DNA from: an uncultured Gammaproteobacteria bacterium
GTDB lineage: Bacteria > Patescibacteriota > Patescibacteriia > VMEV01 > CAZAJQ01
NCBI GenBank assembly: GCA_964485795.1
Contig: CAZAJQ010000004.1
Span: forward strand, 38,292-87,091
Direction of reading: 5' to 3'
DNA length: 48,800 bases
Under the pieces are notes generated by a model. The model worked only from the letters and a program-made list of their open reading frames with translations, made no database searches and had not been told where the DNA came from. Each line of letters opens with the position of its first letter. Positions within the stretch are counted from its first letter, which is position 1. The position numbers were made by a program, and so were the translations under genes. Of the stretch, positions 10,077 to 40,577 are shown one piece after another.

Positions 10077-10116
10077 AATAACCCGCCTGGACAATTTTTG
10101 CCCGGCGGGAATTTTT

Positions 10117-10575: not shown

Positions 10576-10653
10576 AATTACCTCCTTTTTAAAACCAATA
10601 CATACATTACTATTGCATATAATCTACTACAAATGGTTATGAAAGTAAATTTT

Positions 10654-17186: not shown

Positions 17187-17190
17187 GAAA

Positions 17191-17328: not shown

Positions 17329-17426
17329 ATCAAATACGACAGATAATAAACTCTTTATTAATTTAGAGTATAAAATACTTCGCTTCTATTGTAAAGTCTT
17401 TGCATTACCAACTTTCTTTCCACAAG

Positions 17427-17435
17427 TTATTCACA
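17427..17435. promoter_or_regulatory. DnaA box upstream of dnaA
   Basis: TTATTCACA fits the TTATNCACA consensus. It lies in the rpmH-dnaA divergent promoter region. Confidence 0.5.
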
Positions 17436-17530
17436 TCTTTTCCAAAGTCTGATATATTTATCTCAAAATTTTCTTGTGTTATACTCCCACATCATTTCAC
17501 CTTCCTTCTTTTCTCATAAACTTTACTCCT

Positions 17531-18889: not shown

Positions 18890-19336
18890 TTCTGGCTCTT
18901 TTTCCCCCTTCATTGCACACATCATTTTCCTCATACCCACGCAGTATAAGCTCCGGAAAACCATTCTCAAAAGCTTTTGCTTCTATCCCTGTATATCAAC
19001 CTCATCTCTCCTCGAGATAGGGTAATATACAGGGATATTTTCTGTGTATAATCTGTGAGAAACCCTTGTTTTTTCTGTGTATATGAATGTTCATATTTTG
19101 GGAATTCTTTGTGTATAGAGAGAGTCACTTTTCTCTTCTCCCAGTCATCCACACCTTATCTTCACTTTTCCCACAGAGCGGTTGTGAATAAAAAAATGAC
19201 TCATCCTCTGGATTTCATTGCCCCTTTTCACTTTTCCACATTATCCACACCCCTTATTGTTATTATTATATTTATATATAAAATAAGAACATAATAAGAA
19301 AGAACAAGGAGTAAAGCATCCACTTAAACACAATAT
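18890..19336. other. Candidate oriC (DnaA-box cluster plus AT-rich unwinding element)
   Basis: Consensus TTATNCACA boxes at 19043-19051 (rc), 19183-19191 (rc) and 19241-19249. One-mismatch boxes at 19076-19084, 19110-19118, 19145-19153 and 19232-19240. AT-rich tract TTATTGTTATTATTATATTTATATATAAAATAAG at about 19254-19290. Confidence 0.75.
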
Positions 19337-26431: not shown

Positions 26432-27163
26432 TCATTGCTCGAGAAGGGAAAGATTTGTATACCATTCATTGACGTCTTGGCAATCTTCCAAAGCGTCAAA
26501 AAGTCCTTCCAGATTTTTTTTTGATGACTCGGAAACCGATGAAATTCCCTCTTTTGGAACAAAATTTATGCTGGCGTATTCGATGGCGATCTTATTTTTT
26601 TCGAGGAATTCTTTGATTTTTTGAAAATTTTCCGGAGCTGATATGATGATGCAGTCAACGGTTCCATGAATCAGCTCTTCGCATCCCAGATCGATGAGTG
26701 AAAGCTCAAGGGATTCCAAAGTTTTCGCATAGGTTGCCAAAGGCACTCGGATAACAACCTTGCGATGAAAAAGCCACATCACTTTTGCGTCGGAGCGAAA
26801 ACCAAATTGCGAAAGAATGCGTTTTATTTCGGCCGCGGATCGATTTTTATTGTCCGTGAGCGCCTCGATGATTATGGCGATTCCGTCGGAATGCATGCCT
26901 TCATAGATCACCTCATCGAGGTGTAGCCCCTCCTTTGACTCCCCGGTTCCTCTTTTCAAGGCTTTCTCGATATTATCCTTGGGGAGATTGTTCTTTCTTG
27001 CGGTTTCCAAAGCGAGTCGGAGTTTGAAATTCGATTCCGGATCTTTTCCCTCTTTTGCAGCCAAAGAAATGTTGCGGGCAAGCTTGGTGAAAAGAATGGC
27101 CTTTTTTTTGTCCGCAAGACCCTTGGCATGTTTGATGGTGCGCCACTTTGAATGTCCCGACAT
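26432..27163 (-). CDS. YebC/PmpR family DNA-binding regulator
   Basis: MSGHSKWRTIKHAKGLADKKKAILFTKLARNISLAAKEGKDPESNFKLRLALETARKNNLPKDNIEKALKRG. Confidence 0.9.
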   Translation of the reverse strand: MSGHSKWRTIKHAKGLADKKKAILFTKLARNISLAAKEGKDPESNFKLRLALETARKNNLPKDNIEKALKRGTGESKEGLHLDEVIYEGMHSDGIAIIIEALTDNKNRSAAEIKRILSQFGFRSDAKVMWLFHRKVVIRVPLATYAKTLESLELSLIDLGCEELIHGTVDCIIISAPENFQKIKEFLEKNKIAIEYASINFVPKEGISSVSESSKKNLEGLFDALEDCQDVNEWYTNLSLLEQ

Positions 27164-27174
27164 ATGATTACGGT

Positions 27175-28728
27175 ATGAAAATAAAATGTAAAACGCTTAT
27201 TGAAGGTATGGGTGTTTTGGTTTTTGCATTGACGTATTTCGGTTTCTTGCAGCGGTATTCCGGCATCGCCGATCCGGATGCATGGTATCATGCGAAATTC
27301 GCGGCGCTTATGTCCCAACAGGGCATCATCAGGGAATTTCCCTACTTACCTTTTACCTACTTTACCGAACGTTTTGCCGATCATCATTTTCTCTACCATG
27401 TCGCGCTTATCCCTTTTGTGAAAGTTTTACCGCCCATCATGGGATTGAAACTTGCGACGGCTCTCTTCGGGGCACTCTTCGTTGCGTTTTTCTACGGACT
27501 TCTCAAGCAAAGTCGCGTGGCGCATCCGATGATCGCGACCGCATTGCTTCTTGCCAGCTCCCCTTTTGTTTTTCGCATCATGCTTGGAAAAGCCAATGTC
27601 ATGTCCCTATTCATCCTCTTCGCCGCGGTGAATGCCATGCTTCACCGCCGTCCCATACTTTTGGCCACATTGTCCGCATTGGCCGTGCTTTCCCACGGTT
27701 CATTCCCCATACTTTTTATTTGTATAGGAATTTATTGCTTTTCGCAATGGATTATGGATGTTTTTCGCAAGGATTTCGCCGCCGTCCCGTTTCCCGTGCT
27801 CCGTGCGGCATGGAAGGTTGCGAAAAAAAACGTTTCTTTGCTGATCGCCGTTTTCGGAGGCATTGCGGCAGGAATGATAGTGAATCCGTATTTCCCTCGG
27901 AATGTGGCATTTTACTATGAACAGGTGATCGAAATCGCGCTTATCAATTATAAAAACGTCATTTCCGTTGGCGGAGAATGGTATCCGTACCCCTTTTTTG
28001 ACTTTATCGGTGGTGCGGCTTTTGCGTTTATGGCCTTGGGAGCGGCATTGTATTTTCTCATGATCCGAAAAGAAAAAAATACGCTCCATGAAATGACGCT
28101 TTTTTTTATCATGCTTTTTTTCTTTTTTCTCACCTTGCGAAGTCAGAGAAATGTCGAGTATTTCATCCCGTTTGCCGTATGGTTTTCATTTTTGATCATT
28201 CCCCCGTTCCCCGCGACATGGAAGATAAAAAATATGAAAAAGTTTTTTATTGCTGCAAAACCCATGATTCGAAGCATCATGATCTATGGTGTCGTCGCAG
28301 CCCCGTTTTTGGCGTTTTATAATATGCGCGCCGTTTTCATATCCATGCAAGGGCATGACCTTTCACGATTTCAAAAAAGCGCGGAATGGATGGCGCGCTA
28401 TTCCAAAGCCGGTGACATTGTCTTTCACAGCAGCTGGGATGAATTTCCCATCCTTTTTTATTTTAATTCCACCAATTTTTACATTTCCGGCCTTGACCCC
28501 ACTTTTTTTTATCGGAAAGACGCAGCGCTCTATCAAAAATACATTGATATCACCTTGGGAAAAGAAACCCAAGAGGTGGTTCAAACCGTCAAAGAGATAT
28601 TTCACAGCCGATATGTTTTTGTCCAGAAAAAAGATCATGAGGCCATGAGCAGGCTTTTTCGCAATGATTTTCGATTCACCTTGGCCTATGAAGATGAAGA
28701 AGCCGAGGTCTATCTGGTTCCGCGGTGA
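27175..28728 (+). CDS. Polytopic membrane protein, GT-C-fold glycosyltransferase-like (ArnT/PMT-like)
   Basis: More than 10 hydrophobic helices, then a C-terminal soluble domain of about 130 aa. There is an early D/E-containing loop (GIADPDAWYHAKF). The family call rests on architecture only. The table ORF starts at a TTG (27148) that overlaps the yebC start. Confidence 0.5.
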   Translation: MKIKCKTLIEGMGVLVFALTYFGFLQRYSGIADPDAWYHAKFAALMSQQGIIREFPYLPFTYFTERFADHHFLYHVALIPFVKVLPPIMGLKLATALFGALFVAFFYGLLKQSRVAHPMIATALLLASSPFVFRIMLGKANVMSLFILFAAVNAMLHRRPILLATLSALAVLSHGSFPILFICIGIYCFSQWIMDVFRKDFAAVPFPVLRAAWKVAKKNVSLLIAVFGGIAAGMIVNPYFPRNVAFYYEQVIEIALINYKNVISVGGEWYPYPFFDFIGGAAFAFMALGAALYFLMIRKEKNTLHEMTLFFIMLFFFFLTLRSQRNVEYFIPFAVWFSFLIIPPFPATWKIKNMKKFFIAAKPMIRSIMIYGVVAAPFLAFYNMRAVFISMQGHDLSRFQKSAEWMARYSKAGDIVFHSSWDEFPILFYFNSTNFYISGLDPTFFYRKDAALYQKYIDITLGKETQEVVQTVKEIFHSRYVFVQKKDHEAMSRLFRNDFRFTLAYEDEEAEVYLVPR

Positions 28729-29882: not shown

Positions 29883-31313
29883 ATGCGGTGTTTCATCCGA
29901 AAAATACTCTTTTTCTCACTCATGTTTGTCGTATTATCCGCGCAAGCGTGCGGGAAAAGCGCGCCCCCCGCTTCCACGGGTGGAAAAAGCGCCGAGCAGC
30001 GTATACAGCCCTTGGTGCTCAATTATTGGAGAGTATTTGATGAAAAGGACGATTTTGACGAGATATTGGAAGAGTACCGAGCTTCATTTCCGCATATTGA
30101 AATCCGATATCGCAAGCTTCGTTTCGAGGAATATGAGCAGGAATTATTGGACGCTTTGGCCGAGGATCGCGGACCGGACGTGTTTTCGATACACAATACA
30201 TGGATGCGGGGGTACAAAAACAAGTTACTTCCCATGCCGTCTTCGGTGATCATGCCTTTCCAGAAAATCATCGGTACCCTGCAAAAAGAGATCGTGACCG
30301 AGCTTACGACCATCCCCTCGATCAATCTGCGAACCCTCAAGGATCGCTATGTGGACGTGGTGTATGACGACGTGGTCATGACGGATGTCGTGAAAAAAGA
30401 CAATCGGGAAACAGCCCAAAACAACATATACGGACTTCCTTTGAGCGTGGATTCATTGGCGCTTTTCTATAATCGTGATTTGCTCAATAACGCCGGTATC
30501 GCGAATCCCGCGACCACATGGCAAGAATTTCAGGATCATGTAAAAAAGATGAGCCGAGTGGATCGTCAAAACAATATTCTTCTCTCCGGCGCGGCGCTGG
30601 GCACCAGTGAAAATATTCCGAGAAGTACGGATATCCTCTCTTTGGTCATGATGCAAAACGGCACACAGATGACCAATGACGACGGATACGCAACGTTTCA
30701 CCTTATCCCGGAGAATCTTCGCGAACGAGAGGTGGCACCCGGAGTGGAAGCGTTGCTTTTTTACACGGATTTTGCGAACCCCACCAAGGTCGTCTACACG
30801 TGGAACAAAGATCAGAAAAACGCTTTGGACGCCTTTATCGAAGGCAATGTTGCGTACTTTTTCGGATACTCTTACAATATTGAGACCGTCAAAGCTCGGG
30901 CTCCGAAGCTGAATTTTGACATCGCCTCCATACCGCAGATACCGGAAAATCCGGTGATGAATTATGCGAATTATTGGGTGGAGACCGTTTCAAAAAAAAC
31001 CAGGTACCCGGATGAGGCATGGCATTTTGTGCAATTTCTCGCCAAGCCGGAAAATGTCGAAAAATATTTGAAACGCAGCGGAAAGCCCACGGGGCACAAG
31101 GCTTTGATCGACAAACAAAAAGACGATTTGGTCGTCGGTGTCTTCGCCAATCAAGTGCTCACCGCAAAGAGCTGGTACAAGGGAGTTGACGCCGCGGCCG
31201 CCGAGACGATCCTTCGCATGATGATCGATCAGGTTTTATTGGGCAATCGCGAAATCAATGATATCATCAATACGGCCGCGTCCCAGATCAACCAGACGAT
31301 CGGCGGACAATAG
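29883..31313 (+). CDS. Extracellular solute-binding protein (ABC-type family 1), probable lipoprotein, no cognate permease/ATPase in window
   Basis: Signal peptide ending VLSAQAC-GKS (Cys for lipidation). Length of 476 aa and motifs such as DVFSIHNTWM and YGLPLSVDSLALFYNRDLL are typical of sugar-type SBPs. Confidence 0.75.
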   Translation: MRCFIRKILFFSLMFVVLSAQACGKSAPPASTGGKSAEQRIQPLVLNYWRVFDEKDDFDEILEEYRASFPHIEIRYRKLRFEEYEQELLDALAEDRGPDVFSIHNTWMRGYKNKLLPMPSSVIMPFQKIIGTLQKEIVTELTTIPSINLRTLKDRYVDVVYDDVVMTDVVKKDNRETAQNNIYGLPLSVDSLALFYNRDLLNNAGIANPATTWQEFQDHVKKMSRVDRQNNILLSGAALGTSENIPRSTDILSLVMMQNGTQMTNDDGYATFHLIPENLREREVAPGVEALLFYTDFANPTKVVYTWNKDQKNALDAFIEGNVAYFFGYSYNIETVKARAPKLNFDIASIPQIPENPVMNYANYWVETVSKKTRYPDEAWHFVQFLAKPENVEKYLKRSGKPTGHKALIDKQKDDLVVGVFANQVLTAKSWYKGVDAAAAETILRMMIDQVLLGNREINDIINTAASQINQTIGGQ

Positions 31314-32006
31314 ATGTTTTTTCGGTGTATGAAGCGAAATATCAAAAAACTTTTTTTTGCATGGACGGCATTAGTTTTTCTGCTTCCGCTGCAAACTTCG
31401 GCGCAGGAAGGGCTTTTGCAGCAGGCGCTCGGGAGAGATTCGGCATGCCTTGTCAGTGGCTCATGTTCGGTATGCGACGCTTTGCGGGTGATCATCAAGA
31501 TCGCCGAATGGCTTACCGGTCTTTCGGCGCTTCTCGTGATGGTGGTGCTTATCTATGGAGCGTTCTTACTCATCACCTCGAGCGGTGAATCCGATAAAAT
31601 CGGCGACGGGAAAAACGCCATCAAGGCGGCCGTCATCGGCTTGGTGATCGTGATGATCGCGTGGCCGGCGGTGCATCTTTTGATACTTGTGATGGTGGGA
31701 GAGTCAAACGATGATCTCGGGAAAAAACTTAAAACCGGCTGGTATAACTCTCTCAATGCAGAATGCGAGAAGATTGAAAAAACTTCTCAAGGAACATCAC
31801 AGCAAGTCGCGTCAGGACCGGGATGCTGTCAATGGCAACATACGGTTGGTGACGTTACTCAATTTGAAGCCTGCGCCGAATATGATGATCAAAGTAAATG
31901 CCTCTCGCGCAGCGGAAAATCGCTTCCGTGGTTCACGGGGAAAAAATGTATTTCTCCGGGATCGGCGCGCGAAGCTTTCGGGGGAAAAGAAGGAGCTTGC
32001 CAATAG
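31314..32006 (+). CDS. VirB2/TrbC-like pilin paralog P1, with Cys-rich C-terminal extension
   Basis: Signal peptide ending TSAQ, core LIYGAFLLITSSGESDKIGDGKNAIKAAVIGLVIV, then an extra domain of about 95 aa containing 8 Cys. The ATG directly abuts the SBP stop (TAG-ATG). Confidence 0.65.
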   Translation: MFFRCMKRNIKKLFFAWTALVFLLPLQTSAQEGLLQQALGRDSACLVSGSCSVCDALRVIIKIAEWLTGLSALLVMVVLIYGAFLLITSSGESDKIGDGKNAIKAAVIGLVIVMIAWPAVHLLILVMVGESNDDLGKKLKTGWYNSLNAECEKIEKTSQGTSQQVASGPGCCQWQHTVGDVTQFEACAEYDDQSKCLSRSGKSLPWFTGKKCISPGSAREAFGGKEGACQ

Positions 32007-32061
32007 GCAAGACTGAAGAGCGCATGGCCATTCATGGGTGCCTCGTTTCAATCGTCAGCAT

Positions 32062-32445
32062 ATGATACAAAGATTTACGATCATAATATTTGCGTTAATG
32101 TCTTTTTCCGCTGTGCCGGTTTTTGCGCAAGATAAGATAAAAGTAGAAATTAAACCCGTTAAAGGGTTTGAAGCTTTTGAAAGAATTGAAACCGGAGAAG
32201 CGGTCATCACCGAAGTGGCGGTCAGGGTGGTGTCATTTATCATGGCTTTTTCGGGAGTTATCGCCATGGTTTTTGTGATTTACGGAGGCTGGCTGATTTT
32301 GCTTTCCGGAGGGAGCGAAGAAAAGATCAGCGGCGGGAAAAAAATCCTCACATGGGCGGTGATAGGACTCGCCGTGATATTCACAAGCTATGTGGTTATG
32401 AATTTTGTCGTGAATACGATTCAAAAGGGCATCACGGGAAGCTAA
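32062..32445 (+). CDS. VirB2/TrbC-like pilin paralog P2
   Basis: Signal peptide ending VFAQ. Core VIYGGWLILLSGGSEEKISGGKKILTWAVIGLAVIF. The table ORF starts at a GTG (32038). Confidence 0.7.
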   Translation: MIQRFTIIIFALMSFSAVPVFAQDKIKVEIKPVKGFEAFERIETGEAVITEVAVRVVSFIMAFSGVIAMVFVIYGGWLILLSGGSEEKISGGKKILTWAVIGLAVIFTSYVVMNFVVNTIQKGITGS

Positions 32446-32464
32446 AGACGGATGCGGTAATCAT

Positions 32465-32815
32465 ATGAAAAAAAACATTGCAATCATGCTGAGCGTTTCC
32501 ATGGCTTTGACGATGATCGGGGCGATGCTTTTGATGCCTGAAACATCGCTCGCGCAAAAGACTTTGCCAAATCCTCTTGGAGTGACCAATGTGACGGATT
32601 TTATCGTCAGGATCGTAAAATTTTCCTTGCAGATAATCGCCGTCCTGGGATTTTTGTTTTTTGTCATCGGCGGTTTTCAGCTTTTGACATCCGCGGGTAA
32701 CGATGAAAAGGTCAGTCAGGGAAAATCCACGCTGTTTTGGGCCATCGTCGGTATGGCATTAGCGCTTACAAGCTATGTGATGATTGATTTTGTCGTCGGC
32801 GCGTTTTCGAAATAA
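32465..32815 (+). CDS. VirB2/TrbC-like pilin paralog P3
   Basis: Signal peptide ending SLAQ. Core VIGGFQLLTSAGNDEKVSQGKSTLFWAIVGMALAL. Confidence 0.7.
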   Translation: MKKNIAIMLSVSMALTMIGAMLLMPETSLAQKTLPNPLGVTNVTDFIVRIVKFSLQIIAVLGFLFFVIGGFQLLTSAGNDEKVSQGKSTLFWAIVGMALALTSYVMIDFVVGAFSK

Positions 32816-32942
32816 ACGAGGGAGGGATGTTCACATGTGTTTTTTGAGAAATGCGCGAAAAAAAGTATAATGAAGGTGGAAAAATAACCGAGCTTTTTTG
32901 AGGGTTTCCTTAGAAAGGCTTCCACGAAGGGGGGTGAAAGAC

Positions 32943-33353
32943 ATGACATCAGTACAAACATTTTCAAACAAAAAAGTATTGGCAGGCATCATGAGTTTGC
33001 TTTTGGTAGCATTTATGGCGGTTCCGTTTTTCGTCGGAGCGCAGTCGGATCAGTTTGGCCTTGAATTCGGCAAAAACACAGGGCTTGGAACACGGGATCC
33101 TCGCGAGACGGTAGCCCTCGTCATCCGCATCATCATGGGATTTTTGGGCACCATCGCGATCGTGATCATCCTGCTCGGCGGATTCAAGTGGATGACCGCC
33201 GGAGGAAACGATGAAAAAGTGACGGAAGCGAGAAAATTGATCACGGCCGGCATTATCGGCTTGATCATCATTTTGTCCGCTTATGCGATTACGAATTTCG
33301 TCATCACTCAGCTTATGACGGCCACGAACGCCGGAAGAGCTCCGGGATTATAA
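32943..33353 (+). CDS. VirB2/TrbC-like pilin paralog P4
   Basis: GGGGGTG RBS 6 nt before the ATG at 32943. Signal peptide ending VGAQ. Core LLGGFKWMTAGGNDEKVTEARKLITAGIIGLIII. Confidence 0.75.
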   Translation: MTSVQTFSNKKVLAGIMSLLLVAFMAVPFFVGAQSDQFGLEFGKNTGLGTRDPRETVALVIRIIMGFLGTIAIVIILLGGFKWMTAGGNDEKVTEARKLITAGIIGLIIILSAYAITNFVITQLMTATNAGRAPGL

Positions 33354-33468
33354 TGAGGTTATGACTGCCCTGTTCGTTTTTTCGCAAAAAAAAATGATCG
33401 GGGCAGTCCCTCGAGGTTTTGGGGTGATGAATCGCCCCAAGGCTTTGAGCGAGAATCATTAATTTTCA

Positions 33469-33861
33469 ATGATCGCACCGACTATGAAAACAGCATTTCG
33501 GAAAAGCGCTTTTATCGCCTTTTTTTGTTGTTTGAGTTTTTTTGGAAGTGCCACTGTGAATGCGCAGGTGAATGTTTCGGAGCAATTGAATGTGGCGAAG
33601 ACGAAATTAAACATTACTACGTCAAGAACCCCGGAAGAAGTCGTGGGAAGCGTCATCCGCGGCGTTCTGGGATTGGTGGGAATTATCGCATTTGCGTTTT
33701 TCGTCTATGCCGGGATCCTCTGGCTGACGTCGGGCGGTGAAGAGGGAAAGATATCGGCGGCCAAAAACATCCTCAGCGCTGCGGTGATAGGGCTGATTAT
33801 CATCTTCACGGCATACGCTTTGACGAGCTTTGTCATCGACGCCCTGGTGAAAGCGACGTAA
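33469..33861 (+). CDS. VirB2/TrbC-like pilin paralog P5
   Basis: Signal peptide ending VNAQ. Core VYAGILWLTSGGEEGKISAAKNILSAAVIGLIII. Alternative start at 33484. Confidence 0.75.
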   Translation: MIAPTMKTAFRKSAFIAFFCCLSFFGSATVNAQVNVSEQLNVAKTKLNITTSRTPEEVVGSVIRGVLGLVGIIAFAFFVYAGILWLTSGGEEGKISAAKNILSAAVIGLIIIFTAYALTSFVIDALVKAT

Positions 33862-33878
33862 ATGCGGAAAATCAATCT

Positions 33879-34268
33879 ATGAAATATTTTCTTCTCAGCG
33901 GAGCATTGACGGTGATGATGACATCATTTTTTTGCGTTCTCTCACCGGTGCTTGCGCAAGGCGATTTGGGAAGTGAGGTTAAAGATAAGCTCGCAACCGG
34001 CGGGCAATCTTCCCTCCTCAAAAGCGACCGAGCTTTGAGCACCATCGTCGGCGGGATTATCAATGCGTTTTTGGCGATTGTCGGTGCGGTTTCGCTGTAC
34101 TTGTTTGTCTGGGGAGGCTTTGAGCTCCTGATGGGAGGCGGCAATGAAGAAAAGGTGTCGGCCGGCAAAGCCAAGATCAAAAACAGCGTGATCGGCCTCA
34201 TCATCGTGATCGCGGCTTATGCCATCGTGAAGTTTATCGCCGAATTTGTGCCGGCGCTTTTGAAGTGA
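33879..34268 (+). CDS. VirB2/TrbC-like pilin paralog P6
   Basis: Signal peptide ending VLAQ. Core VWGGFELLMGGGNEEKVSAGKAKIKNSVIGLIIV. Confidence 0.75.
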   Translation: MKYFLLSGALTVMMTSFFCVLSPVLAQGDLGSEVKDKLATGGQSSLLKSDRALSTIVGGIINAFLAIVGAVSLYLFVWGGFELLMGGGNEEKVSAGKAKIKNSVIGLIIVIAAYAIVKFIAEFVPALLK

Positions 34269-34273
34269 GGAGT

Positions 34274-34660
34274 ATGAAAAAATTGATAGCCAGCTTGGGA
34301 ATGATCGCCGGAGGAATAAGCATCCCTCTTTTTTCGATATTGGCTCAACCGCAGGAGGCCGAGAAAAAGCTGGAAGCATTCTCGCGGGATGTTGGAATTG
34401 GTCAAGGCGTTGGCGGACTGGATTATCAAGCCGGATCCATCATTAACTCCGTCCTCAGTCTTGTCGGTCTCATTTTTCTTATCGTCGTCATCTATGCCGG
34501 ATTTCAGTGGCAGACGGCCGGCGGGAATGAAGAAAAGGCACAGGCATCGCTCAAAATGTTCATTTCCGCGATTTTGGGTTTGGTCATTGTTCTGGGGGCG
34601 TATATTTTCGTGAATTCGCTTTTGGGCGGCTTGATCGGCGCGGTGACGGGTACGCCGTAA
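34274..34660 (+). CDS. VirB2/TrbC-like pilin paralog P7
   Basis: GAGGAG RBS. Signal peptide ending ILAQ. Core IYAGFQWQTAGGNEEKAQASLKMFISAILGLVIV. Confidence 0.75.
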   Translation: MKKLIASLGMIAGGISIPLFSILAQPQEAEKKLEAFSRDVGIGQGVGGLDYQAGSIINSVLSLVGLIFLIVVIYAGFQWQTAGGNEEKAQASLKMFISAILGLVIVLGAYIFVNSLLGGLIGAVTGTP

Positions 34661-34679
34661 AGGAGATCCTCGATAAATA

Positions 34680-34965
34680 GCGCTATCGTTGGGGCAGACC
34701 TCTGTGTCTGCCCCAACGATAGCGCCGTTGAGTGTGTGTAACCCCAATTCGCCAAGACGACCCCGAGTCTGTCACGCCTCTGTTGAGTGTCTGCAGTGAC
34801 CACGCCGTTGAGTTTTGCCACCCCCGTCGAATTTTGCCGGGACAATACGCCCCTGAATGTCGGAACGCCGCCGCCGCTGGTCAGCCGCGAACCGTTTTCT
34901 CTCCACCGTTCGTCGAGGCGTGGTGTGCTGTTGGGGGAGATACATAGGTCTCCCCCAACAGCACA
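34680..34965. repeat. Non-coding insert bounded by two related long hairpins (H1 34680-34725, H2 34924-34965)
   Basis: H1 has a perfect 20 bp stem: GCGCTATCGTTGGGGCAGAC, loop CTCTGT, GTCTGCCCCAACGATAGCGC. H2 has a 17 bp stem: TGTGCTGTTGGGGGAGA, loop TACATAGG, TCTCCCCCAACAGCACA. Both stems share GTTGGGG-AGA. Their apices are near reverse complements of each other, so the hairpins are in inverted orientation. Three GCC(G/TCT)TTGAGT direct repeats lie between them. Confidence 0.7.
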
Positions 34966-34986
34966 TCGTTTTACTCTCTCCTATCT

Positions 34987-35364
34987 ATGCATCGACTTTC
35001 CCGTATCACCACAATTTTATTCTCCGCGATTTTCATTTTTGCCATGCCTTTTTCGATATTGGCGCAGGATAACTTAAAATCACAGGTATTGGATCCGCTT
35101 GGACAAACAACAGATGCCGCTGGCTATGATCGCGCAATTTCCATCACCGCGGCCATCGGGAATCTCACCAAGGCTTTTTTGGCGGTATTCGGTGCGTATT
35201 TTTTGTTTCGAACCGTGTATGCCGGGTATCTTTGGTTCATGGCAAAGGGCAATGAGGAGCAGGTGCAGCAAGCCAAGGAAATTCTCAAAGGCGCGGTCTT
35301 TGGCGTCATCGTTGCGTCCATGGCGGGTGTGATCATCGCTCTTGTGACGAATCTTGTGGCGTGA
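34987..35364 (+). CDS. VirB2/TrbC-like pilin paralog P8
   Basis: Signal peptide ending ILAQ. Core VYAGYLWFMAKGNEEQVQQAKEILKGAVFGVIV. Confidence 0.75.
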   Translation: MHRLSRITTILFSAIFIFAMPFSILAQDNLKSQVLDPLGQTTDAAGYDRAISITAAIGNLTKAFLAVFGAYFLFRTVYAGYLWFMAKGNEEQVQQAKEILKGAVFGVIVASMAGVIIALVTNLVA

Positions 35365-35516
35365 CCCCCTTCGATAGGCTCATGCTTCGGCAGGCTCAGC
35401 ATGACACAGGGGTCGACGCGGGACATGGGGGTGTGATCATCGTTCTGGTTACAAATTTTGTGGTGTGACCCCCTTCGGCACGCTCAGGGTGACAGGGGGC
35501 GTCGCAGGACATGGGG
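35327..35516 (+). repeat. Direct duplication (104 bp unit, then an 86 bp unit) that includes the last 38 nt of P8
   Basis: Unit 1 (35327-35430) and unit 2 (35431-35516) both read GTGTGATCATCG.TCT.GT.AC.AAT.TTGTGG.GTGACCCCCTTCG...GCTCAG..TGACA..GGG..CG.CG.GGACATGGGG. Unit 2 keeps an in-frame GVIIVLVTNFVV-stop, compared with GVIIALVTNLVA-stop in P8. Confidence 0.75.
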
Positions 35517-35560
35517 CTCCCCGCGCGTACCTTGTTCAACCCTCCTTGTCATTGTTTCCT

Positions 35561-35599
35561 TCCCTTGTCTCCCTTCGACAAGCTCAGGGTGACAAGGGA
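35561..35599. repeat. Copy of the dispersed CCTTCGRCARGCTCAGGGTGACA motif, in a hairpin context
   Basis: TCCCTTGTC, T-CCCTTCGACAAGCTCAGGGT, GACAAGGGA (9 bp stem). The same motif is at 35385-35410 and 35471-35498, and in all four repeats of the parS island. Confidence 0.7.
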
Positions 35600-35663
35600 A
35601 GGACGCGGTACTAGGGGTGTTACAGGTAGAGGGTCAAATTTGATAAAGGTGTAATTTTTTTTC

Positions 35664-36080
35664 ATGAAACCGGTTCGATTTATTATTTCAGCCGTCGTAT
35701 TGGGAGTGCTGGTGACTCCCTTGCTTTTGTTTGCGCAAGGGGAGGCTCCAAAGGGTGTGAATCAGGTCAGAAAAGGGTTGAATGAGGCGCTGGAAAAGGC
35801 CGAGATACCGGGCAAGAGCACATTGGCGGAAACAACGGCGAATCGTGGAGAAGAGTTGGCGAGCATCATGGGGACGATCATCAATATTGCCGTCGGAATT
35901 TTGGGTGCGGTCACTTTTCTTTTCATACTCTATGCCGGCTACCTCTGGTTCACCGCCAAAGGCAATGATGAACAGGTGGTCAAGGCCAAGGATATCTTTG
36001 CAGACGCGGTGATCGGACTCGTATTGATACTGGTTTCAGGCTTTTTGGCATCCTTGGTTTTGAGAATATTCACGAGGTAG
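35664..36080 (+). CDS. VirB2/TrbC-like pilin paralog P9
   Basis: Signal peptide ending LFAQ. Core LYAGYLWFTAKGNDEQVVKAKDIFADAVIGLVLI. Confidence 0.75.
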   Translation: MKPVRFIISAVVLGVLVTPLLLFAQGEAPKGVNQVRKGLNEALEKAEIPGKSTLAETTANRGEELASIMGTIINIAVGILGAVTFLFILYAGYLWFTAKGNDEQVVKAKDIFADAVIGLVLILVSGFLASLVLRIFTR

Positions 36081-36109
36081 CGAGCAAGGCGTTACGAGTA
36101 TGTCACACA

Positions 36110-36147
36110 GGATAGACCTATGTAGCGATAAACACATAGGTTTATCC
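36110..36147. repeat. Intergenic hairpin H3
   Basis: GGATAGACCTATGT, loop AGCGATAAAC, ACATAGGTTTATCC (14 bp stem with one G-T pair). It contains the CTATGT/ACATAG hexamers that form the loops of the other hairpins. Confidence 0.6.
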
Positions 36148-36184
36148 CTACAGAGGTTTATTTCTGCGGATTACGTTAAACGTT

Positions 36185-37468
36185 ATGTCTCCAAAAAAAA
36201 TCATTCCCTGTACGCTTATCGGAATCACCCTCGTGATGCCTTTTTTCGCGTCGGCGCAGATCATCAATAAAGATACGGGAAGAGCGGCGGAGAGGCTTTT
36301 GAACAAGGGATTGGAAAAAGCGGAGCTTGCCACCGGGTCGAATATTGAGTTTGCAAAGCGTATCGGCAATGTCATCAATCTCGCCATCGGCATTTTCGGC
36401 GTTGTTTTGCTCGGACTGCTGATATACGCGGGGTATCTCTGGACCAATGCGCGGGGCAATGAAGAGGAGGTAACGCAAGCGAAGAATATCATCAAAGAAG
36501 CGGTAATAGGGTTGTTTTTGGTTTTCATTGCTGGTGGACTGGCCACGGCTACCACAAGCTTTTTAGGCACGGAAACACTCAGCAACAAAGTGTTTCTTGA
36601 TCAGCTGGAGCTAGAATCGCAAGTGAGTAGAATTTCTGGCTTGAAGTTTGAGGATTTCGTGTATCTCCAGACAACGGCCGCTCGAATTATCAATTTCGTT
36701 CTCGGCTTACTCGGAGTGATCGCCCTTTGTCTTTTCATCTATGCCGGCTATCTTTGGCTCTCGGCCGGAGGCAATGAAGAAAAGGTTTCGACGGCAAAAA
36801 GCCTCTTATCGCAGACCATCACCGGCTTTCTCGTGGTTTTCGTATCCGCGACCTTGATCAATATCGTCCTGCAAATGGGACCGATCCAAGAAAAAGTTGC
36901 CGGCCTGGCTATTGTCGCCAAAGAAGTGGGGCTCGATGTCGGCACCATCGAAAGCGCTTTTGTCCAGTTTGGACGAGTGCTCAATTTCATCCTCGGGCTT
37001 ATCGGGGTGATTATCCTCGTTCTCTATATCTATGCCGGGTATCTTTGGGCTTCGGCGGGGGGCAATGAAGAAAAGGTGGGGCAGGCGAAAAAGATTTTTG
37101 CGGAAACGATTTTGGCGACATTCTTTATTTTCGTTACGGGAATTATTGTTTCTATAGCACTGAACACTTCAAAGATTAAGCAAGAATTGGCAGTCACGGG
37201 ATTGGATATTGTCAAGATTGAGACTGACTTACAAACCGGAGATATTATTTATGCAGGTGCTCGAGTCGGAAGTGTTCTGAATTTTCTTGTCGGCATGCTT
37301 GGCCTAGTAGCCTTTGTCCTTATCCTCTACTCCGGCTATCTCTGGGCTACGGCCGCAGGAAATGAAGAGCAGGTTACCAAAGCGAGGAGAATTTTGATAG
37401 AATCCGTAGGAGGGATGACTTTGGTGTTTTTGACGGGGTATATCGTGAATATCGTGTTGCAGCTGTGA
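36185..37468 (+). CDS. Four-domain concatenated VirB2/TrbC-like pilin P10 (predicted signal peptide + 8 TM)
   Basis: Signal peptide ending ASAQ. Four complete helix-loop-helix units with loops YAGYLWTNARGNEEEV (nt 36425), YAGYLWLSAGGNEEKV (36740), YAGYLWASAGGNEEKV (37031) and YSGYLWATAAGNEEQV (37328), joined by linkers of about 35-45 aa. Confidence 0.75.
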   Translation: MSPKKIIPCTLIGITLVMPFFASAQIINKDTGRAAERLLNKGLEKAELATGSNIEFAKRIGNVINLAIGIFGVVLLGLLIYAGYLWTNARGNEEEVTQAKNIIKEAVIGLFLVFIAGGLATATTSFLGTETLSNKVFLDQLELESQVSRISGLKFEDFVYLQTTAARIINFVLGLLGVIALCLFIYAGYLWLSAGGNEEKVSTAKSLLSQTITGFLVVFVSATLINIVLQMGPIQEKVAGLAIVAKEVGLDVGTIESAFVQFGRVLNFILGLIGVIILVLYIYAGYLWASAGGNEEKVGQAKKIFAETILATFFIFVTGIIVSIALNTSKIKQELAVTGLDIVKIETDLQTGDIIYAGARVGSVLNFLVGMLGLVAFVLILYSGYLWATAAGNEEQVTKARRILIESVGGMTLVFLTGYIVNIVLQL

Positions 37469-37602
37469 GAAGGTAAGTGAAATTTGGCATACAAGCAAAT
37501 ACACTTTTTGAGCGATACGTTCTTGGGTTACTAGCTGCAGGCTAGTTTTGAAGAGTGTCAGGTAGCGATTATTGGAAAAAAAATCAAGAGCATGCACTTT
37601 AT

Positions 37603-37983
37603 ATGAAAAAAATAATTGCCATTTTTTTTACCGCATTCCTTGTTTTCACTCCCCTATTCGCTTCGGCGCAGCTGCTCAAAAAAGGAGAAGAGCAGCAGAC
37701 CAAGGAAGCGTTTGAAGCGGTGACGGGCGAGATCGGTCTTGCTACCGGCAATGAAGTGATGCTGGGGAGGACGATTTCGCAGATCATCAATTTTGCGCTC
37801 GGGCTTTTGGGCGTGGTGATGCTTGTCATCACCATCTACGGCGGATATCTGTGGTTTTCCGCCGCCGGCAATGACGAACAGGTTTCGAAAGCGAAAAGTG
37901 TCATGACGCAAGCGGTTATCGGGCTTGCGATTATTTTTTTGGCGGCCCTGATCATTAATGTTGTGCTGAATGCGGGAAGGTAG
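37603..37983 (+). CDS. VirB2/TrbC-like pilin paralog P11
   Basis: MKKIIAIFF start. Signal peptide ending ASAQ. Core IYGGYLWFSAAGNDEQVSKAKSVMTQAVIGLAII. The table ORF opens at 37555. Confidence 0.75.
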   Translation: MKKIIAIFFTAFLVFTPLFASAQLLKKGEEQQTKEAFEAVTGEIGLATGNEVMLGRTISQIINFALGLLGVVMLVITIYGGYLWFSAAGNDEQVSKAKSVMTQAVIGLAIIFLAALIINVVLNAGR

Positions 37984-38040
37984 TCGCAGGTATATTTTCC
38001 AAGCGAAAGGAAAAATTCCCGTTAATTTTTTTTCCACCGT

Positions 38041-38721
38041 ATGAAGAATATTTTCTTGGCAATTTTCCTCGCAATGATATTTGCCTTATCCCCCGTCGTT
38101 GCTTTCGCTCAGCTGAAGTCGGCCAATACGAATCGCATCCAGCAGGAGCTGAGTCAAGTGACGGGATTGCCTTCCGGAGGCACGAATCCGGCGACGGCAT
38201 TGGGAGGGACGCTCGGAAATATCGTTACCGTTTTTTTCAGCCTGCTCGGCACCGTGGCCTTGGGCTATATCCTCTATGCCGGATATCTCTGGTTTTCCGC
38301 GGCCGGCAATGAGGAGCAGGTGGATGCGGCCAAGAAAACATTGTACCGAGCCGTGATGGGTTTGCTCGTGATCATGCTGTCGTATGCGATAATTACGGTG
38401 GTTCTGAACGTCTTTGGAAAAGGGCCGGGGTCGGAGGAGGCGGCGAGGCAGAGAGAGGAAGAAGAGCTGCAGAAAAATCTGGAAAAAGATTTTCCAGTGT
38501 CAGCCGAGCCTTCAGATGTTGAAAAAGCGAAAGCGGAAATCGCGCAGATAATGAAAGAGATTCAGCAAATCGATGAAAGCATTGTTGATTATGAACGACT
38601 CAGAGATACTGCAGTAACCCCTTTGTTTGCAGAACGTTGGCAAAATGAAATCAATCAATTACAGCAAAAGAAGGAGGCTTTAATGGAAAGAGCAGTCGTT
38701 TTATACGGAAAATTACCATAA
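38041..38721 (+). CDS. VirB2/TrbC-like pilin paralog P12, with charged coiled-coil C-terminal extension
   Basis: Signal peptide ending AFAQ. Core LYAGYLWFSAAGNEEQVDAAKKTLYRAVMGLLVI. Then about 95 aa rich in E/K/Q (EEAARQREEEELQKNLEK...NEINQLQQKKEALMERA). Confidence 0.75.
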   Translation: MKNIFLAIFLAMIFALSPVVAFAQLKSANTNRIQQELSQVTGLPSGGTNPATALGGTLGNIVTVFFSLLGTVALGYILYAGYLWFSAAGNEEQVDAAKKTLYRAVMGLLVIMLSYAIITVVLNVFGKGPGSEEAARQREEEELQKNLEKDFPVSAEPSDVEKAKAEIAQIMKEIQQIDESIVDYERLRDTAVTPLFAERWQNEINQLQQKKEALMERAVVLYGKLP

Positions 38722-38765
38722 GAAATTATAAAGATGTAACCTTTGCATTAAGGATAAAGGGGTCT

Positions 38766-39269
38766 ATGAAATATTTACGGGCAATCTCTTTTACGATAAT
38801 ATTTTTATTTGGTATTGGGTATATTGGGACATTACAAGCGCATGCCCAAGGCGGCGCCGTGTTTGATGCGTTCGGGAAAAAAGCGGGGCTGGAACGCACG
38901 GTACGGGTGCCATTGCAGGTTCGCATCGCGGAAATCATAGCCATGTTGCTGAATTTCGTCGGCATGATCGCGATCATTGTCATCCTCTACGGCGGATTCG
39001 TCTACATGACTTCTCAAGGTGAAGATGAAAAAATCAACCAATCCAAGCAAATCATCAAAAACGGGATATTGGGAATCCTTGTCGTCATGATGTCCTATGG
39101 AATCGCACAATTCACCATCAACTCCATACGTTTCGGCTCGGGCGATCAATGCTCCCCCGGTCAGGTGGCGCAAGACAGCCTCGCGAATTTTCTGACGCTC
39201 GGACTGTATCGCGCCCCCTGCATGGAAAGAGATATCCCGATAGAGTATTTTTTCAATTCAGAAACGTAG
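38766..39269 (+). CDS. VirB2/TrbC-like pilin paralog P13, with short Cys-containing C-terminal extension
   Basis: Signal peptide ending AHAQ. Core LYGGFVYMTSQGEDEKINQSKQIIKNGILGILVV. Tail of about 50 aa with 2 Cys. Confidence 0.7.
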   Translation: MKYLRAISFTIIFLFGIGYIGTLQAHAQGGAVFDAFGKKAGLERTVRVPLQVRIAEIIAMLLNFVGMIAIIVILYGGFVYMTSQGEDEKINQSKQIIKNGILGILVVMMSYGIAQFTINSIRFGSGDQCSPGQVAQDSLANFLTLGLYRAPCMERDIPIEYFFNSET

Positions 39270-39321
39270 CGAGATGCTTCTGGGGATAGTTGCCCTCATC
39301 GGCTGTGATATAATCAATAGT

Positions 39322-39705
39322 ATGAAACGAATTTCATCCGGCATATTGTTTTTCTTCATCATTTTGAGCTCATTTCTTTTCACCCGCTCCCACTCAATGG
39401 CGGCCGCCGATCTGGGACAGCTTCTCAATAACGCCGCGGTCGCCTATGATACGAGTGCAGGTGCGGCGGATCCCCTTGCCATCGTGGGTATGGTCATCGT
39501 CACCTTGCTGGGTTTTCTCGGCATAGCGGCGGCCGGTTACATGATCTACGGAGGATATATATGGCTCATGGCGCGAGGCAATGAAGAGGAGGTGAAGCGA
39601 GGGAAAAAAATCATCTGGAATGCGACGGTGGGTATGGTCATCATCCTCTCGGCATACGCTTTATCAAATTTCATCTTGAGCGGCATACAAACTGCCACAC
39701 AATAA
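39322..39705 (+). CDS. VirB2/TrbC-like pilin paralog P14
   Basis: MKRISSGILFF start. Core IYGGYIWLMARGNEEEVKRGKKIIWNATVGMVII. The table ORF opens at 39274. Confidence 0.75.
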   Translation: MKRISSGILFFFIILSSFLFTRSHSMAAADLGQLLNNAAVAYDTSAGAADPLAIVGMVIVTLLGFLGIAAAGYMIYGGYIWLMARGNEEEVKRGKKIIWNATVGMVIILSAYALSNFILSGIQTATQ

Positions 39706-39714
39706 TACATCACT

Positions 39715-40098
39715 ATGAAAAAGATCTTTTCTTTTTTAATCGCATCAAGCATTGCGGTTATGAGTTTTTCAATATCAGTAGCGCCGGTCGGAGCCGTTGA
39801 GCTTTTGGAAAATTTGAATAAAGCAGCAAATGCGTCGTTTGAAACGACAAAAAACGACCCCATTGAAATCGTCTCTACGGTCATCAATACTTTGCTGGCG
39901 TTTCTCGGGATCGGCGCCACGGCACTGGTCATTTACGGCGGGTTCATCTGGCTTACGGCGCGAGGCAATGAAGAAGAAGTGAAAAAAGGTCAGACCATCA
40001 TACGCAATGCCATCATCGGGCTCATCATCATCATGAGTGCCTACGCTCTCGCGAATTTCATCATCACAAATCTTTCCACTGCCACGGGAGTGAAATAG
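39715..40098 (+). CDS. VirB2/TrbC-like pilin paralog P15
   Basis: Core IYGGFIWLTARGNEEEVKKGQTIIRNAIIGLIII. Signal peptide ends VGAV rather than AQ. Confidence 0.75.
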   Translation: MKKIFSFLIASSIAVMSFSISVAPVGAVELLENLNKAANASFETTKNDPIEIVSTVINTLLAFLGIGATALVIYGGFIWLTARGNEEEVKKGQTIIRNAIIGLIIIMSAYALANFIITNLSTATGVK

Positions 40099-40187
40099 GT
40101 TTCGCCTCGCGCGCTCTGAAGGCTTTGCATAAGACACCGCGTCCGATATTCTCATCACCGAGAGTCCTCGCGATGAATCTCTTCACT

Positions 40188-40577
40188 ATGAAAAAAATAT
40201 TTTTGTGCATGTTTGTTGTATTATCGACTTTCGTTTCTTTTCACTCCACCCCCGCCTTTGCCGCCGTGGATATCTCTTCGGAGCTGAAAAAGGCGGCCGC
40301 CGAATCGTATAGCGAGCCAAGGGGTGGAGCCATCGATATCGTGGGGCGAGTTATCGGAGGGCTGTTCGGATTTCTCGGCATCGGCGCCGCGGCACTCATG
40401 ATTTACGGCGGATACGTATGGTTTGGAGCGCAGGGAAACGAGGAGCAGGTAAAAAAGGCCAAGGATATCATCCGTGACGCTTTTATCGGGCTTATCATCC
40501 TTACGAGCGCTTATGCGTTGACGAGGTTTGTGATCGATCAGGTGCAGAAAAGAATCATCAATCAACAGACGAAGTAA
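40188..40577 (+). CDS. VirB2/TrbC-like pilin paralog P16
   Basis: MKKIFLCMF start (alternatives at 40173 and 40125). Core IYGGYVWFGAQGNEEQVKKAKDIIRDAFIGLIIL. Confidence 0.75.
   Translation: MKKIFLCMFVVLSTFVSFHSTPAFAAVDISSELKKAAAESYSEPRGGAIDIVGRVIGGLFGFLGIGAAALMIYGGYVWFGAQGNEEQVKKAKDIIRDAFIGLIILTSAYALTRFVIDQVQKRIINQQTK

Follow-up and report, generated by a model that had tools for sequence, protein, structure and literature searches.

Organization of the pilin gene array

In the 48.8-kb stretch of DNA analysed here (the window), the ORF listing places 16 intact ORFs, all on the + strand, in 31314-40577. A Pfam search assigned 16/16 of these genes to PF18895 (T4SS_pilin) at 27.9-96.2 bits, above the gathering cutoff of 26.6, and since P10 (ORF10, 36185-37468) holds four domains, the array carries 19 pilin domains. 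All of the proteins follow one plan, in which an N-terminal hydrophobic signal-like segment is followed, in each domain, by two hydrophobic helices around a conserved loop with the consensus [YWIL]-[GAS]-[GA]-x-x-x-x-x-[ASGKM]-x-G-[NSE]-[DES]-[EDG]-[KQEG]-[VIA]. The signal peptide ends in A-Q in 13 of the 16 proteins and in A-A or A-V in P14-P16. These results bear out an earlier note, made from the sequence alone, that had described 16 tandem same-strand paralogs with 19 domain copies, signal peptides ending in A-Q in 13 of the genes and two helices joined by a conserved loop, and had suggested a search for PF18895. The array is chromosomal, about 12 kb from dnaA and on the leading strand. 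Its features are as follows.

29883..31313, +, SBP_bac_1 family solute-binding lipoprotein gene (Pfam SBP_bac_1/SBP_bac_8); stop codon abuts the P1 start
31314..32006, +, P1, array head subunit, pilin domain (PF18895, 40 bits) with a 98-aa Cys-rich C-terminal extension
32038..32445, +, P2 pilin (PF18895, 31.2 bits); true start probably downstream of the GTG
32465..32815, +, P3 pilin (PF18895, 34.2 bits)
32898..33353, +, P4 pilin (PF18895, 37.2 bits); probable start ATG at 32943
33469..33861, +, P5 pilin, ancient type (PF18895, 40.4 bits; orthologs in 9 loci)
33879..34268, +, P6 pilin, ancient type (PF18895, 44.9 bits; orthologs in 20 loci)
34265..34660, +, P7 pilin, ancient type, 4-nt overlap with P6 (PF18895, 28 bits; orthologs in 38 loci)
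34680..34968, no strand, P7-P8 intergenic region with two GC-rich hairpins of 20-bp stem (34680-34725 and 34921-34968)
34987..35364, +, P8 pilin, opens the P8-P12 expansion block in the identity matrix (PF18895, 30.3 bits)
35325..35620, no strand, partial tandem re-duplication of the P8 3' end and its hairpin, period about 100 nt (repeat families D1, D3 and D4)
35664..36080, +, P9 pilin, expansion block (PF18895, 38.1 bits)
36185..37468, +, P10, four fused pilin domains, 427 aa, single signal peptide (PF18895, 96.2 bits, 4 stretches)
37555..37983, +, P11 pilin, expansion block (PF18895, 44.2 bits); probable start ATG at 37603
38041..38721, +, P12, pilin domain (PF18895, 33.3 bits) with a 96-aa charged, Cys-free C-terminal extension
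38766..39269, +, P13 pilin, ancient type, short C-terminal extension with 2 Cys (PF18895, 31.3 bits; orthologs in 11 loci)
39274..39705, +, P14 pilin, P14-P16 expansion block (PF18895, 28.9 bits); probable start ATG at 39322
39715..40098, +, P15 pilin (PF18895, 36 bits; AF2 pLDDT 83.4)
40125..40577, +, P16 pilin, final array gene (PF18895, 27.9 bits); probable start ATG at 40188

Several members depart from the simple plan. The C-terminal extension of P1 contains 7 Cys, and that of P12 looks like a coiled coil. The AF2 model of P10 shows four helical hairpins (pLDDT 66.6, pTM 0.39), and domains b-d of this protein have their nearest sequences among the paralogs within the window; the AF2 helices of P15 span residues 2-19, 27-43, 49-81 and 86-124. 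The second hairpin between P7 and P8 (34921-34968) is followed by a T-run, and the two hairpins are likely to act as a terminator or processing site that would divide the array into transcription units. The re-duplicated stretch at 35325-35620 is a footprint of the duplication process; the gap there holds no detectable pilin domain.

Divergence of the array genes

Within the array, mean pilin identity is 30%, with a maximum of 61% in the identity matrix of the domains, the value found for P14 and P15 across the domain. The earlier note held that subfamilies follow physical order. The blocks P8-P12 and P14-P16 are indeed real, but the overall correlation is modest (Mantel rho -0.26, p~0.005), and the nearest array member of both P4 and P6 is P15. 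A conserved DNA core of about 45 nt was likewise recovered only in part: the pattern TATGCCGGNTATCTNTGG is exact in 4/19 domains, but the mean identity of the core is only 60%, and the longest exact DNA word common to any two domains is 18 nt. Gene conversion, which the earlier note suggested such a core could support, is not supported: a GENECONV-style global permutation test gave p = 0.08 with the top runs sitting on the constrained motif, and third codon positions were saturated even between the closest pairs.

All 16 genes and all 19 domains are under purifying selection, with codon positions 1-2 being 59-82% identical and position 3 being 40-46% identical. No degraded pilin copies were found in the gaps of the array. 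The array is GC-richer than the rest of the window (48.5% vs 42.8%); the earlier note had, by eye, set it above the 9-13 kb and 41-44 kb regions. However, a meaningful anomaly is not supported: adjacent housekeeping genes are equal to it (SBP 48.6%, NTP-transferase 48.3%, PBP 47.5%), and the GC outliers in the window are low-GC islands.

Relationship to VirB2/TrbC and other pilin families

The earlier note recognised in the array proteins the architecture of TrbC/VirB2 pilins and of the Pfam T4SS_pilin family, and this family assignment is correct. In its favour are the PF18895 matches of all 16 genes, the architecture and the A-Q junction; alignment showed that A-x-A-Q is invariant in authentic VirB2/TrbC proteins, in the position that corresponds to the A-Q signal peptide end of the array. 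In addition, PF18895 and PF04956 (TrbC/VirB2) are both present in some multi-domain homologs. However, the PF04956 search of the array proteins gave no score above threshold, the best sub-threshold match being P3 (22.3 bits, E 1.5e-4, cutoff 27.9), and hhalign aligned the array family colinearly with authentic VirB2/TrbC at E 0.0011 and a probability of only 20%. The helical hairpin is confident in the AF2 model of P15 (pLDDT 88-96), but the best Foldseek match was ATP synthase subunit c, with VirB2/TraA pilin absent from the top 50; among solved structures, the pilin profile found no significant match. Homology of the array pilins to classical VirB2 is weak.

Compared with classical TrbC/VirB2 (PF04956; Agrobacterium VirB2, MPF_T plasmids), the array proteins are alike in the A-Q signal peptide, the two hydrophobic helices with a short loop and the small size. 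They differ in the loop, which in the array is acidic (GNEE[KQE]V) and has 7 more residues as aligned by hhalign, whereas that of authentic VirB2/TrbC is short and basic; the array organism is a monoderm, unlike the classical case; and virB1 and virB3 flank virB2 in every plasmid checked, while the array has neither of them adjacent. NF045849, the pilin-like conjugal transfer protein of Mycoplasma ICEs (the Mbov_0395 family), independently matched 6/6 pilins tested at 25-50 bits, although its cutoff was passed only by the four-domain P10 via its summed score. The Mbov_0395 family resembles the array proteins in these sequence matches, in its helical-hairpin domain of 80 residues and in its monoderm host, but its gene is single-copy in ICEs.

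Conservation of the array and its neighbourhood in relatives

The nearest relatives that were found are members of class ABY1 (Falkow-, Magasanik- and Kerfeldbacteria); their arrays routinely comprise 8-13 pilin genes and share the layout of NTP-transferase, SBP lipoprotein and array. Multi-domain pilins are common, with as many as 16 domains per protein. Six types (P1, P4, P5, P6, P7 and P13) have positional orthologs in distant genomes and are ancient subunit types. Orthologs of P1 outscored its best within-window paralog at 14 loci. P4 is the best conserved among relatives (identity up to 68%; 30 loci outscore its best paralog) and is a candidate core or major subunit. P8-P12 and P14-P16 are lineage-specific expansions. 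The array is built from a conserved core set and two local expansions.

Of the related loci, 28 extend far enough upstream to be compared; in 15 of these an SBP homolog directly precedes the array in the same orientation, and in 6 more it lies within the array or beside an inverted array head. The array thus has a conserved operon partner in the SBP lipoprotein gene, all of whose orthologs carry the lipobox Cys. NTP-transferase and PNPase are among the syntenic housekeeping genes near relatives' arrays, and neither an ABC permease or ATPase nor a T4SS component is found among the recurrent neighbours.

In agreement with the earlier note, which saw no such gene, VirB4, VirB6 and VirD4 have no Pfam match anywhere in the window. 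This absence is expected and not anomalous, because the recurrent array neighbours of relatives also lack T4SS components and VirB4 lies elsewhere in the genome of at least one array-bearing ABY1 relative, which is listed as VirB4-positive. The T4SS loci of class ABY1 are located elsewhere on the chromosome, away from the array.

Comparison with published arrays

In Patescibacteria, 441 VirB2-like arrays of 2-11 genes each have been catalogued, with a within-array identity of 25% on average and 54% at most, and a pilin gene lies near virB4 in 1135/1948 assemblies (PMC12102498). Ca. Southlakia epibionticum ML1 has a 6-gene pilin array that is essential and lies inside a T4SS cluster (Wang 2023), and the 'Sec-secreted array' of TM7x is a further example. 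The array described here shares with these the PF18895 family, tandem same-strand order, low within-array identity (here 30% on average and 61% at most), a chromosomal location and proximity to the replication origin; apart from its unusual length, it is typical of a feature already described for ultrasmall Patescibacteria (CPR). The scale stressed by the earlier note is therefore unusual in that 16 genes (19 domains) exceed the published maximum of 11, but not in kind. Also new are the SBP lipoprotein as conserved operon partner at the head and the division into ancient conserved types and lineage-specific expansions; these and the four-domain fusion set the array apart from the published ones, as does, in comparison with Southlakia, the lack of an adjacent virB4. 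An analogy to VirB2 paralogs in Bartonella and Anaplasma has also been raised (PMC12102498). Both cases involve tandem amplification and divergence of a pilin gene in a host-associated bacterium, but Bartonella and Anaplasma are diderms in which the paralogs are virulence-associated T4SS pilin genes (PMC12102498), whereas the present array has far more copies, lacks machinery beside it and gives no evidence that its copies recombine.

Interpretation of the array

We consider it probable that the array comprises Patescibacteria-type VirB2-like T4SS pilin genes (PF18895) that build a heteropolymeric surface filament via a VirB4-type T4SS; such a filament, already proposed in the earlier note, is still the most plausible reading. 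Points against it are the lack of T4SS machinery in the window, the low PF04956 and hhalign scores, the profile and fold searches without a pilin match and the longer, more acidic loop; the literature found also describes no visualised pilus of PF18895 proteins. The pilins would be exported by Sec, cleaved at A|Q and inserted with both termini outside the cell; an external C-terminus is suggested by the Cys-rich C-terminal extensions on 61/355 pilin ORFs. Their extraction and polymerisation into a filament that may serve contact with a host cell would then fall to a VirB4-type T4SS whose genes lie at another place in the genome. The ancient, positionally conserved set probably has fixed, distinct roles, with P4 as the putative core subunit, and the Cys-rich, presumably extracellular modules on P1 and many relatives' subunits resemble adhesins or tip pieces. 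In the two expansions (P8-P12 with the four-domain P10, and P14-P16), variation lies mostly in the exposed N-terminal segment. The sugar-SBP family lipoprotein, which would be co-transcribed at the array head, is probably a partner of the array at the cell surface.

That partnership also admits a reading without type IV secretion, in which the lipoprotein and the two-helix proteins form a surface or membrane assembly of their own, such as a mixed-subunit pore, conduit or lattice capturing host-derived sugars, which would work without VirB4 in this lineage. The tie between SBP gene and array in 21/28 loci, even with an inverted head, fits this reading, as do the lipoprotein nature of every SBP ortholog, recurrent neighbours that include no ABC permease, ATPase or T4SS gene, and a best fold match to a membrane-ring hairpin. 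We nevertheless regard it as unlikely: conserved neighbourhood alone is weak evidence because NTP-transferase and PNPase are equally syntenic, an SBP-pilin interaction has no direct evidence, VirB4 is present in an array-bearing ABY1 relative, and Saccharimonadia carry the PF18895 family within an essential T4SS cluster. The Southlakia array and the frequent proximity of pilin genes to virB4 (PMC12102498) also make it improbable that these are generic small two-TM membrane proteins, with 'T4SS_pilin' a mere family name and a role outside type IV secretion. The window without T4SS genes, the lack of a significant structural match by sequence or fold, and the low hhalign and PF04956 scores would agree with that idea; against it, PF18895 agrees with the conjugation-linked NF045849 and the weak TrbC signals, and the A-Q end is common to VirB2.

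The earlier note also raised a reservoir for antigenic or host-range variation; in such a reading the array would be a cassette bank switched by gene conversion via the conserved DNA core. Many divergent copies, variable N-terminal segments, a common loop-coding motif and the Bartonella/Anaplasma analogy speak for it, but it is largely refuted, and we judge it improbable, given the short common words, the divergent core, the permutation test and the saturated third positions. Moreover, there are no silent cassettes, because all copies are complete and each has a start and a signal peptide of its own, and six types keep positional orthologs in distant genomes. A decaying pseudogene array left by a lost T4SS would account for the machinery not being nearby, yet it can hardly be reconciled with 16/16 intact ORFs with signal peptides, gaps free of degraded copies, ortholog conservation throughout the clade and a strong purifying-selection signature; gene intactness and the selection pattern refute it.

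Sixteen intact pilin-like genes form the array

The array and the elements within it lie as follows.

29883-31313, + strand: solute-binding lipoprotein gene (SBP) at the array head
31314-40577, + strand: 16 successive ORFs (P1-P16 in array order)
34680-34725: GC-rich hairpin with a perfect 20-bp stem
34921-34968: GC-rich hairpin with a 20-bp stem, followed by a T-run
35325-35620: about three copies, with a period of ~100 nt, of the final 40 nt of P8 together with a hairpin motif (CCCTTCGxCAxGCTCAGGGTGACA)
36185-37468, + strand: P10 (ORF10, 427 aa), with four domains (P10a-d)

All 16 genes exceeded the Pfam gathering score for PF18895 (T4SS_pilin; 27.9-96.2 bits, cutoff 26.6), and the four domains of P10 bring the total to 19. 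By using a hydropathy scan and a motif search, we found the same protein plan throughout: a signal-like hydrophobic segment at the N-terminus and a variable segment precede two helices, and between these helices lies a conserved loop with G-N-E-E-[KQE]-V at its centre. The signal peptide ended in A-Q in 13 of the 16 genes and in A-A or A-V in P14-P16. An AlphaFold2 model of P15, with the paralogs as the alignment, gave a confident helical hairpin (helices 49-81 and 86-124, pLDDT 88-96) with a short helix (27-43) ahead of it. The hairpins in the P10 model were confident as well, but its pTM was 0.39, and the packing between its domains is therefore uninterpretable. These results bear out the description in the earlier note, namely 16 same-strand genes with 19 domains, a signal peptide followed by helix-loop-helix, the A-Q end in 13 genes and the PF18895 family that it had named. 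The two hairpins lie at either end of the 326 nt that separate P7 from P8 and are probably terminator or processing sites that split the array into transcription units.

Quinonero-Coronel et al. (2025; PMC12102498) found VirB2-like pilins in 1,948 Patescibacteria assemblies. Their survey lists 441 arrays, each of 2-11 genes, in which identity averages 25% and reaches at most 54%, and it places T4SS genes frequently close to dnaA. Like those arrays, the present one consists of divergent tandem paralogs: domain identity averaged 30%, with a maximum of 61% (P14/P15) and a minimum of 14%. It differs from them in size, as its 16 genes (19 domains) exceed the 11 of the largest published array. The phenomenon is thus already described and the locus is a new, unusually large case of it, to which we add the modest details of a core-versus-expansion structure and an SBP partner.

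The link to VirB2/TrbC is weak when compared directly

None of the array proteins reached the cutoff of 27.9 bits for PF04956 (TrbC/VirB2), the best being P3 (22.3 bits, E 1.5e-4) and P7 (17.3 bits). When a profile of the 19 domains was aligned by hhalign with nine authentic VirB2/TrbC proteins, 65 colinear columns were obtained with a probability of 20.3% and an E-value of 0.0011. The domain profile matched no solved structure among the PDB sequences (best E 0.26), and a Foldseek search of the PDB with the P15 model gave 0 hits at E<=1e-3; a two-helix hairpin is too simple a fold for such a search to discriminate, and we take the outcome as uninformative, not as negative. The top Foldseek hit was ATP synthase subunit c (E 0.3), and the top 50 contained generic helical hairpins and no conjugative pilin (VirB2 or TraA). 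At the level of direct comparison, the VirB2 link is weak.

The support for it is indirect. A-x-A-Q is invariant in the nine authentic proteins, and a putative propilin-type A-Q end is seen in most of the array. The family NF045849 (Mbov_0395 pilin-like conjugal transfer protein of Mycoplasma ICEs) was hit by P10 at 50.1 bits summed over its domains (cutoff 40), while the single-domain copies scored 25.5-32 bits, under that cutoff; moreover, some homologs bear both PF18895 and PF04956. Pilins in other Patescibacteria classes are genomically associated with virB4, and in Ca. Southlakia epibionticum they form part of the T4SS cluster, and epibiotic growth requires them. The VirB2/TrbC-like assignment proposed earlier stood with respect to PF18895 and to the A-Q end shared with VirB2, but not with respect to PF04956. 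We file the genes as members of PF18895 and not of the TrbC/VirB2 family, and regard their products as VirB2-like in function and probably distantly homologous to VirB2.

The array is embedded in ordinary chromosome around the replication origin

Searching Pfam identified the genes surrounding the array as follows.

Before the array: nusA, ppa, tig, lspA, Y-family polymerase, lexA, yidC, rnpA
17474-18889, + strand: dnaA
Also: dnaN, class A PBP, ruvC, yebC, NTP-transferase, solute-binding protein
27148-28728: polytopic membrane protein (526 aa)
Past the array: UPF0102 nuclease-like gene, MerR regulator, thioredoxin reductase, M23/LysM peptidase

These are genes of an ordinary chromosome around its replication origin. 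By contrast, virB2 was flanked by virB1 and virB3 in every plasmid checked, whereas the array is flanked by housekeeping genes. The earlier note had seen no VirB4/VirB6/VirD4-type gene in the 48.8 kb, and we likewise detected none of these families within the window; its view that this absence is unusual did not hold, as shown below by the relatives. The array has a GC content of 48.5%, equal to that of the neighbouring housekeeping genes, and the outliers of the window are low-GC islands. We therefore do not regard the array as GC-anomalous and reject horizontal transfer deduced from GC. The 27148-28728 ORF is the sole large ORF near the array that lacks a Pfam hit; its product resembles GT-C or ArnT-type enzymes. 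A TrbJ identity for it was rejected as noise (18 bits; cutoff 164).

Related loci reveal a conserved core and two expansions

A genome scan with P10 returned 44 loci, most of which belong to MAGs of Magasanik-, Falkow- and Kerfeldbacteria (class ABY1) and none to the same species. Pilin ORFs were counted with an HMM of the 19 window domains, and contig ends cut many of the arrays. Many of these loci had 8-13 pilin ORFs, and the 16 of the window were the highest in the sample. The scale that had been called unusual is real, and the count also lies above the published maximum, but in kind the array does not stand apart from the others. Its surroundings were kept in the relatives: an NTP-transferase gene, the SBP gene and the array, often with an NYN-domain gene and PNPase next. 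No T4SS component occurred among the recurrent neighbours of their arrays. An ORF of ~747 aa downstream of these arrays was suspected to be VirB4 and proved to be PNPase. Since Magasanikbacteria GW2011_GWA2_37_8, the source of one array-bearing locus (L011), is listed as VirB4-positive (Table S1 of PMC12102498), missing adjacent machinery is the rule in this lineage and no anomaly. For class ABY1, the T4SS loci described sit beside comF, recG and radA, at a different chromosomal location.

For P1, P4, P5, P6, P7 and P13, orthologs elsewhere outscored every paralog within the window; those of P4 beat the best paralog in 30 loci (identity up to 68%) and those of P7 in 38 loci. The nearest sequences of P10b-d, P11, P12 and P14-P16 were their own array neighbours. 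This split indicates an ancient, positionally conserved set of subunits plus two lineage-specific tandem expansions, and it favours a defined heteropolymer over a cassette bank. The repeat at 35325-35620 is either a partial tandem duplication scar, as a footprint of the expansion process, or a small REP-like element. The subfamily blocks P8-P12 and P14-P16 that had been thought to track gene order are real, but the correlation of similarity with physical order was only modest (Mantel rho -0.26, p about 0.005).

A solute-binding lipoprotein accompanies the array

The SBP gene abuts P1, its stop codon being followed immediately by the ATG of P1. Of the 28 related loci with enough upstream sequence, 15 had an SBP homolog immediately upstream of the array, three further ones had it inside the array, and three others, in which the array head was inverted, had it beside the Cys-rich head pilin. 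The lipobox cysteine was present in all SBP orthologs. No ABC permease or ATPase was found among the recurrent array neighbours in the relatives, and no mention of a link between an SBP and a pilin array was found in the searchable literature.

Beyond the window, the gene for a sugar-family SBP lipoprotein was a near-constant array partner in the ABY1 relatives (L009, L013-L018, L020, L021, L025-L031, L033, L035-L038 and L041).

The copies are old genes under purifying selection

The earlier note had proposed that a conserved DNA core could support gene conversion and, as one of several possible roles, that the array might be a reservoir for antigenic or host-range variation. The tandem copies do share a loop motif, but the core had a mean identity of only 60%, and the longest exact word common to any two domains was 18 nt. 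A GENECONV-style permutation test was globally non-significant (p = 0.08), with its longest matching runs on the selectively constrained loop. Even in the closest pairs, identity was 40-46% at third codon positions and 59-82% at the first two, which shows that the duplicates are old, under purifying selection and not homogenised. Silent truncated cassettes of the pilE/pilS type and a single expression locus were absent, all 16 copies being full-length with a start codon and a signal peptide. We therefore reject a conversion system of this type and consider the reservoir largely refuted and very improbable. The array as a row of mostly decaying pseudogenes fares worst and is refuted: besides the intact copies and the selection pattern, no decayed copies were found when the 300-nt intergenic gaps were searched. 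All 16 genes of the locus are intact, under selection and in the same orientation, and each encodes a helical-hairpin protein with a signal peptide. The loci L001 and L002 were 100% identical to the window and thus gave no strain-variation signal.

Proposed role of the array

We infer that the pilins would be exported by Sec, cleaved at A|Q and inserted into the membrane with both termini outside. A VirB4-type T4SS encoded elsewhere would then extract and polymerise them into a heteropolymeric surface filament for host contact, in which core subunits would hold fixed roles and the expansions would bring variation into the N-terminal segment that is exposed. The SBP lipoprotein would be active at that surface too. 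C-terminal extensions of >40 aa were present on 61 of 355 pilin ORFs, most of them Cys-rich, and together with the Big_5 fusions described below they fit a C-terminus-outside topology with displayed modules.

That the SBP and the pilins form an envelope module independent of the T4SS is unlikely; the abutting genes and the lack of adjacent T4SS genes sit with it, and the VirB4-positive relative sits with the filament. A more elaborate proposal, which we hold to be speculative and rather improbable, is that the ABY1 array and its co-transcribed sugar-SBP lipoprotein constitute a dedicated surface organelle (heteropolymeric filament or conduit) beyond a T4SS accessory: about six ancient types would occupy fixed structural positions, Cys-rich or Ig-like modules would attach to the host, the SBP would capture host-derived substrates, and the expansions, including fused poly-pilins, would tune host range. 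That the array proteins are not pilins at all is very unlikely; the Foldseek results are compatible with it, and PF18895 and the A-Q end speak for the filament of VirB2-like pilins.

The locus leaves the overall picture of Patescibacteria T4SS/pilin arrays unchanged and offers three handles: extreme copy number, a clean core/expansion split and a conserved SBP lipoprotein partner with a possible role at the host interface. The Patescibacteria T4SS and its pilin arrays proved essential in the only species in which this was examined; to our knowledge, no pilus and no substrate of the system has been reported.

Further observations in the window and the family

In the origin neighbourhood (16821-20452), rnpA and yidC on the - strand precede the + strand genes dnaA and dnaN, and the cumulative GC skew reaches its minimum at ~19-20 kb. 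The array belongs to the leading strand, at a distance of about 12 kb from dnaA. At 6849-9179, a gene for a Y-family (IMS) polymerase adjoins one for a LexA-like S24 peptidase; in this reduced genome the pair forms a mutagenesis cassette of the SOS type. The low-GC island at 9000-13400 (34-38% GC; overall, about 44%) may have been acquired horizontally as a cluster for nucleotide or sugar modification, and it has the following content.

9471-10076, + strand: thymidylate-kinase-like gene
12704-13321, - strand: thymidylate-kinase-like gene
Also within the island: NUDIX hydrolase, SAM methyltransferase, GT2-like glycosyltransferase

A protein of the 27148-28728 type was found again near pilin arrays in four related loci (L012, L019, L030 and L031).

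The PF18895-type family comprised 88,392 clusters at 50% identity (E<=1e-3), with proteins of up to 16 domains; multi-domain pilins are thus common, and the four-domain P10 is not exceptional. Poly-pilins with 8-16 tandem PF18895 domains (P0040, P0068, P0104, P0069, P0033 and L043 458-3697) found no mention in the literature examined. Fusions of an Ig-like Big_5 domain (PF13205) to a PF18895 pilin were recurrent (homologs P0011-P0029, 308-747 aa), mainly in Magasanikbacteria, and by their domain make-up are candidate pilus-displayed adhesins. In two Magasanikbacteria loci (L037 2647-4653 and L041 91-1926), type IV pilin-like genes lay just upstream of the NTP-transferase, SBP and array block. 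These genes carry the N_methyl motif, one of them with CarboxypepD_reg domains, so that two different pilus gene sets are juxtaposed.
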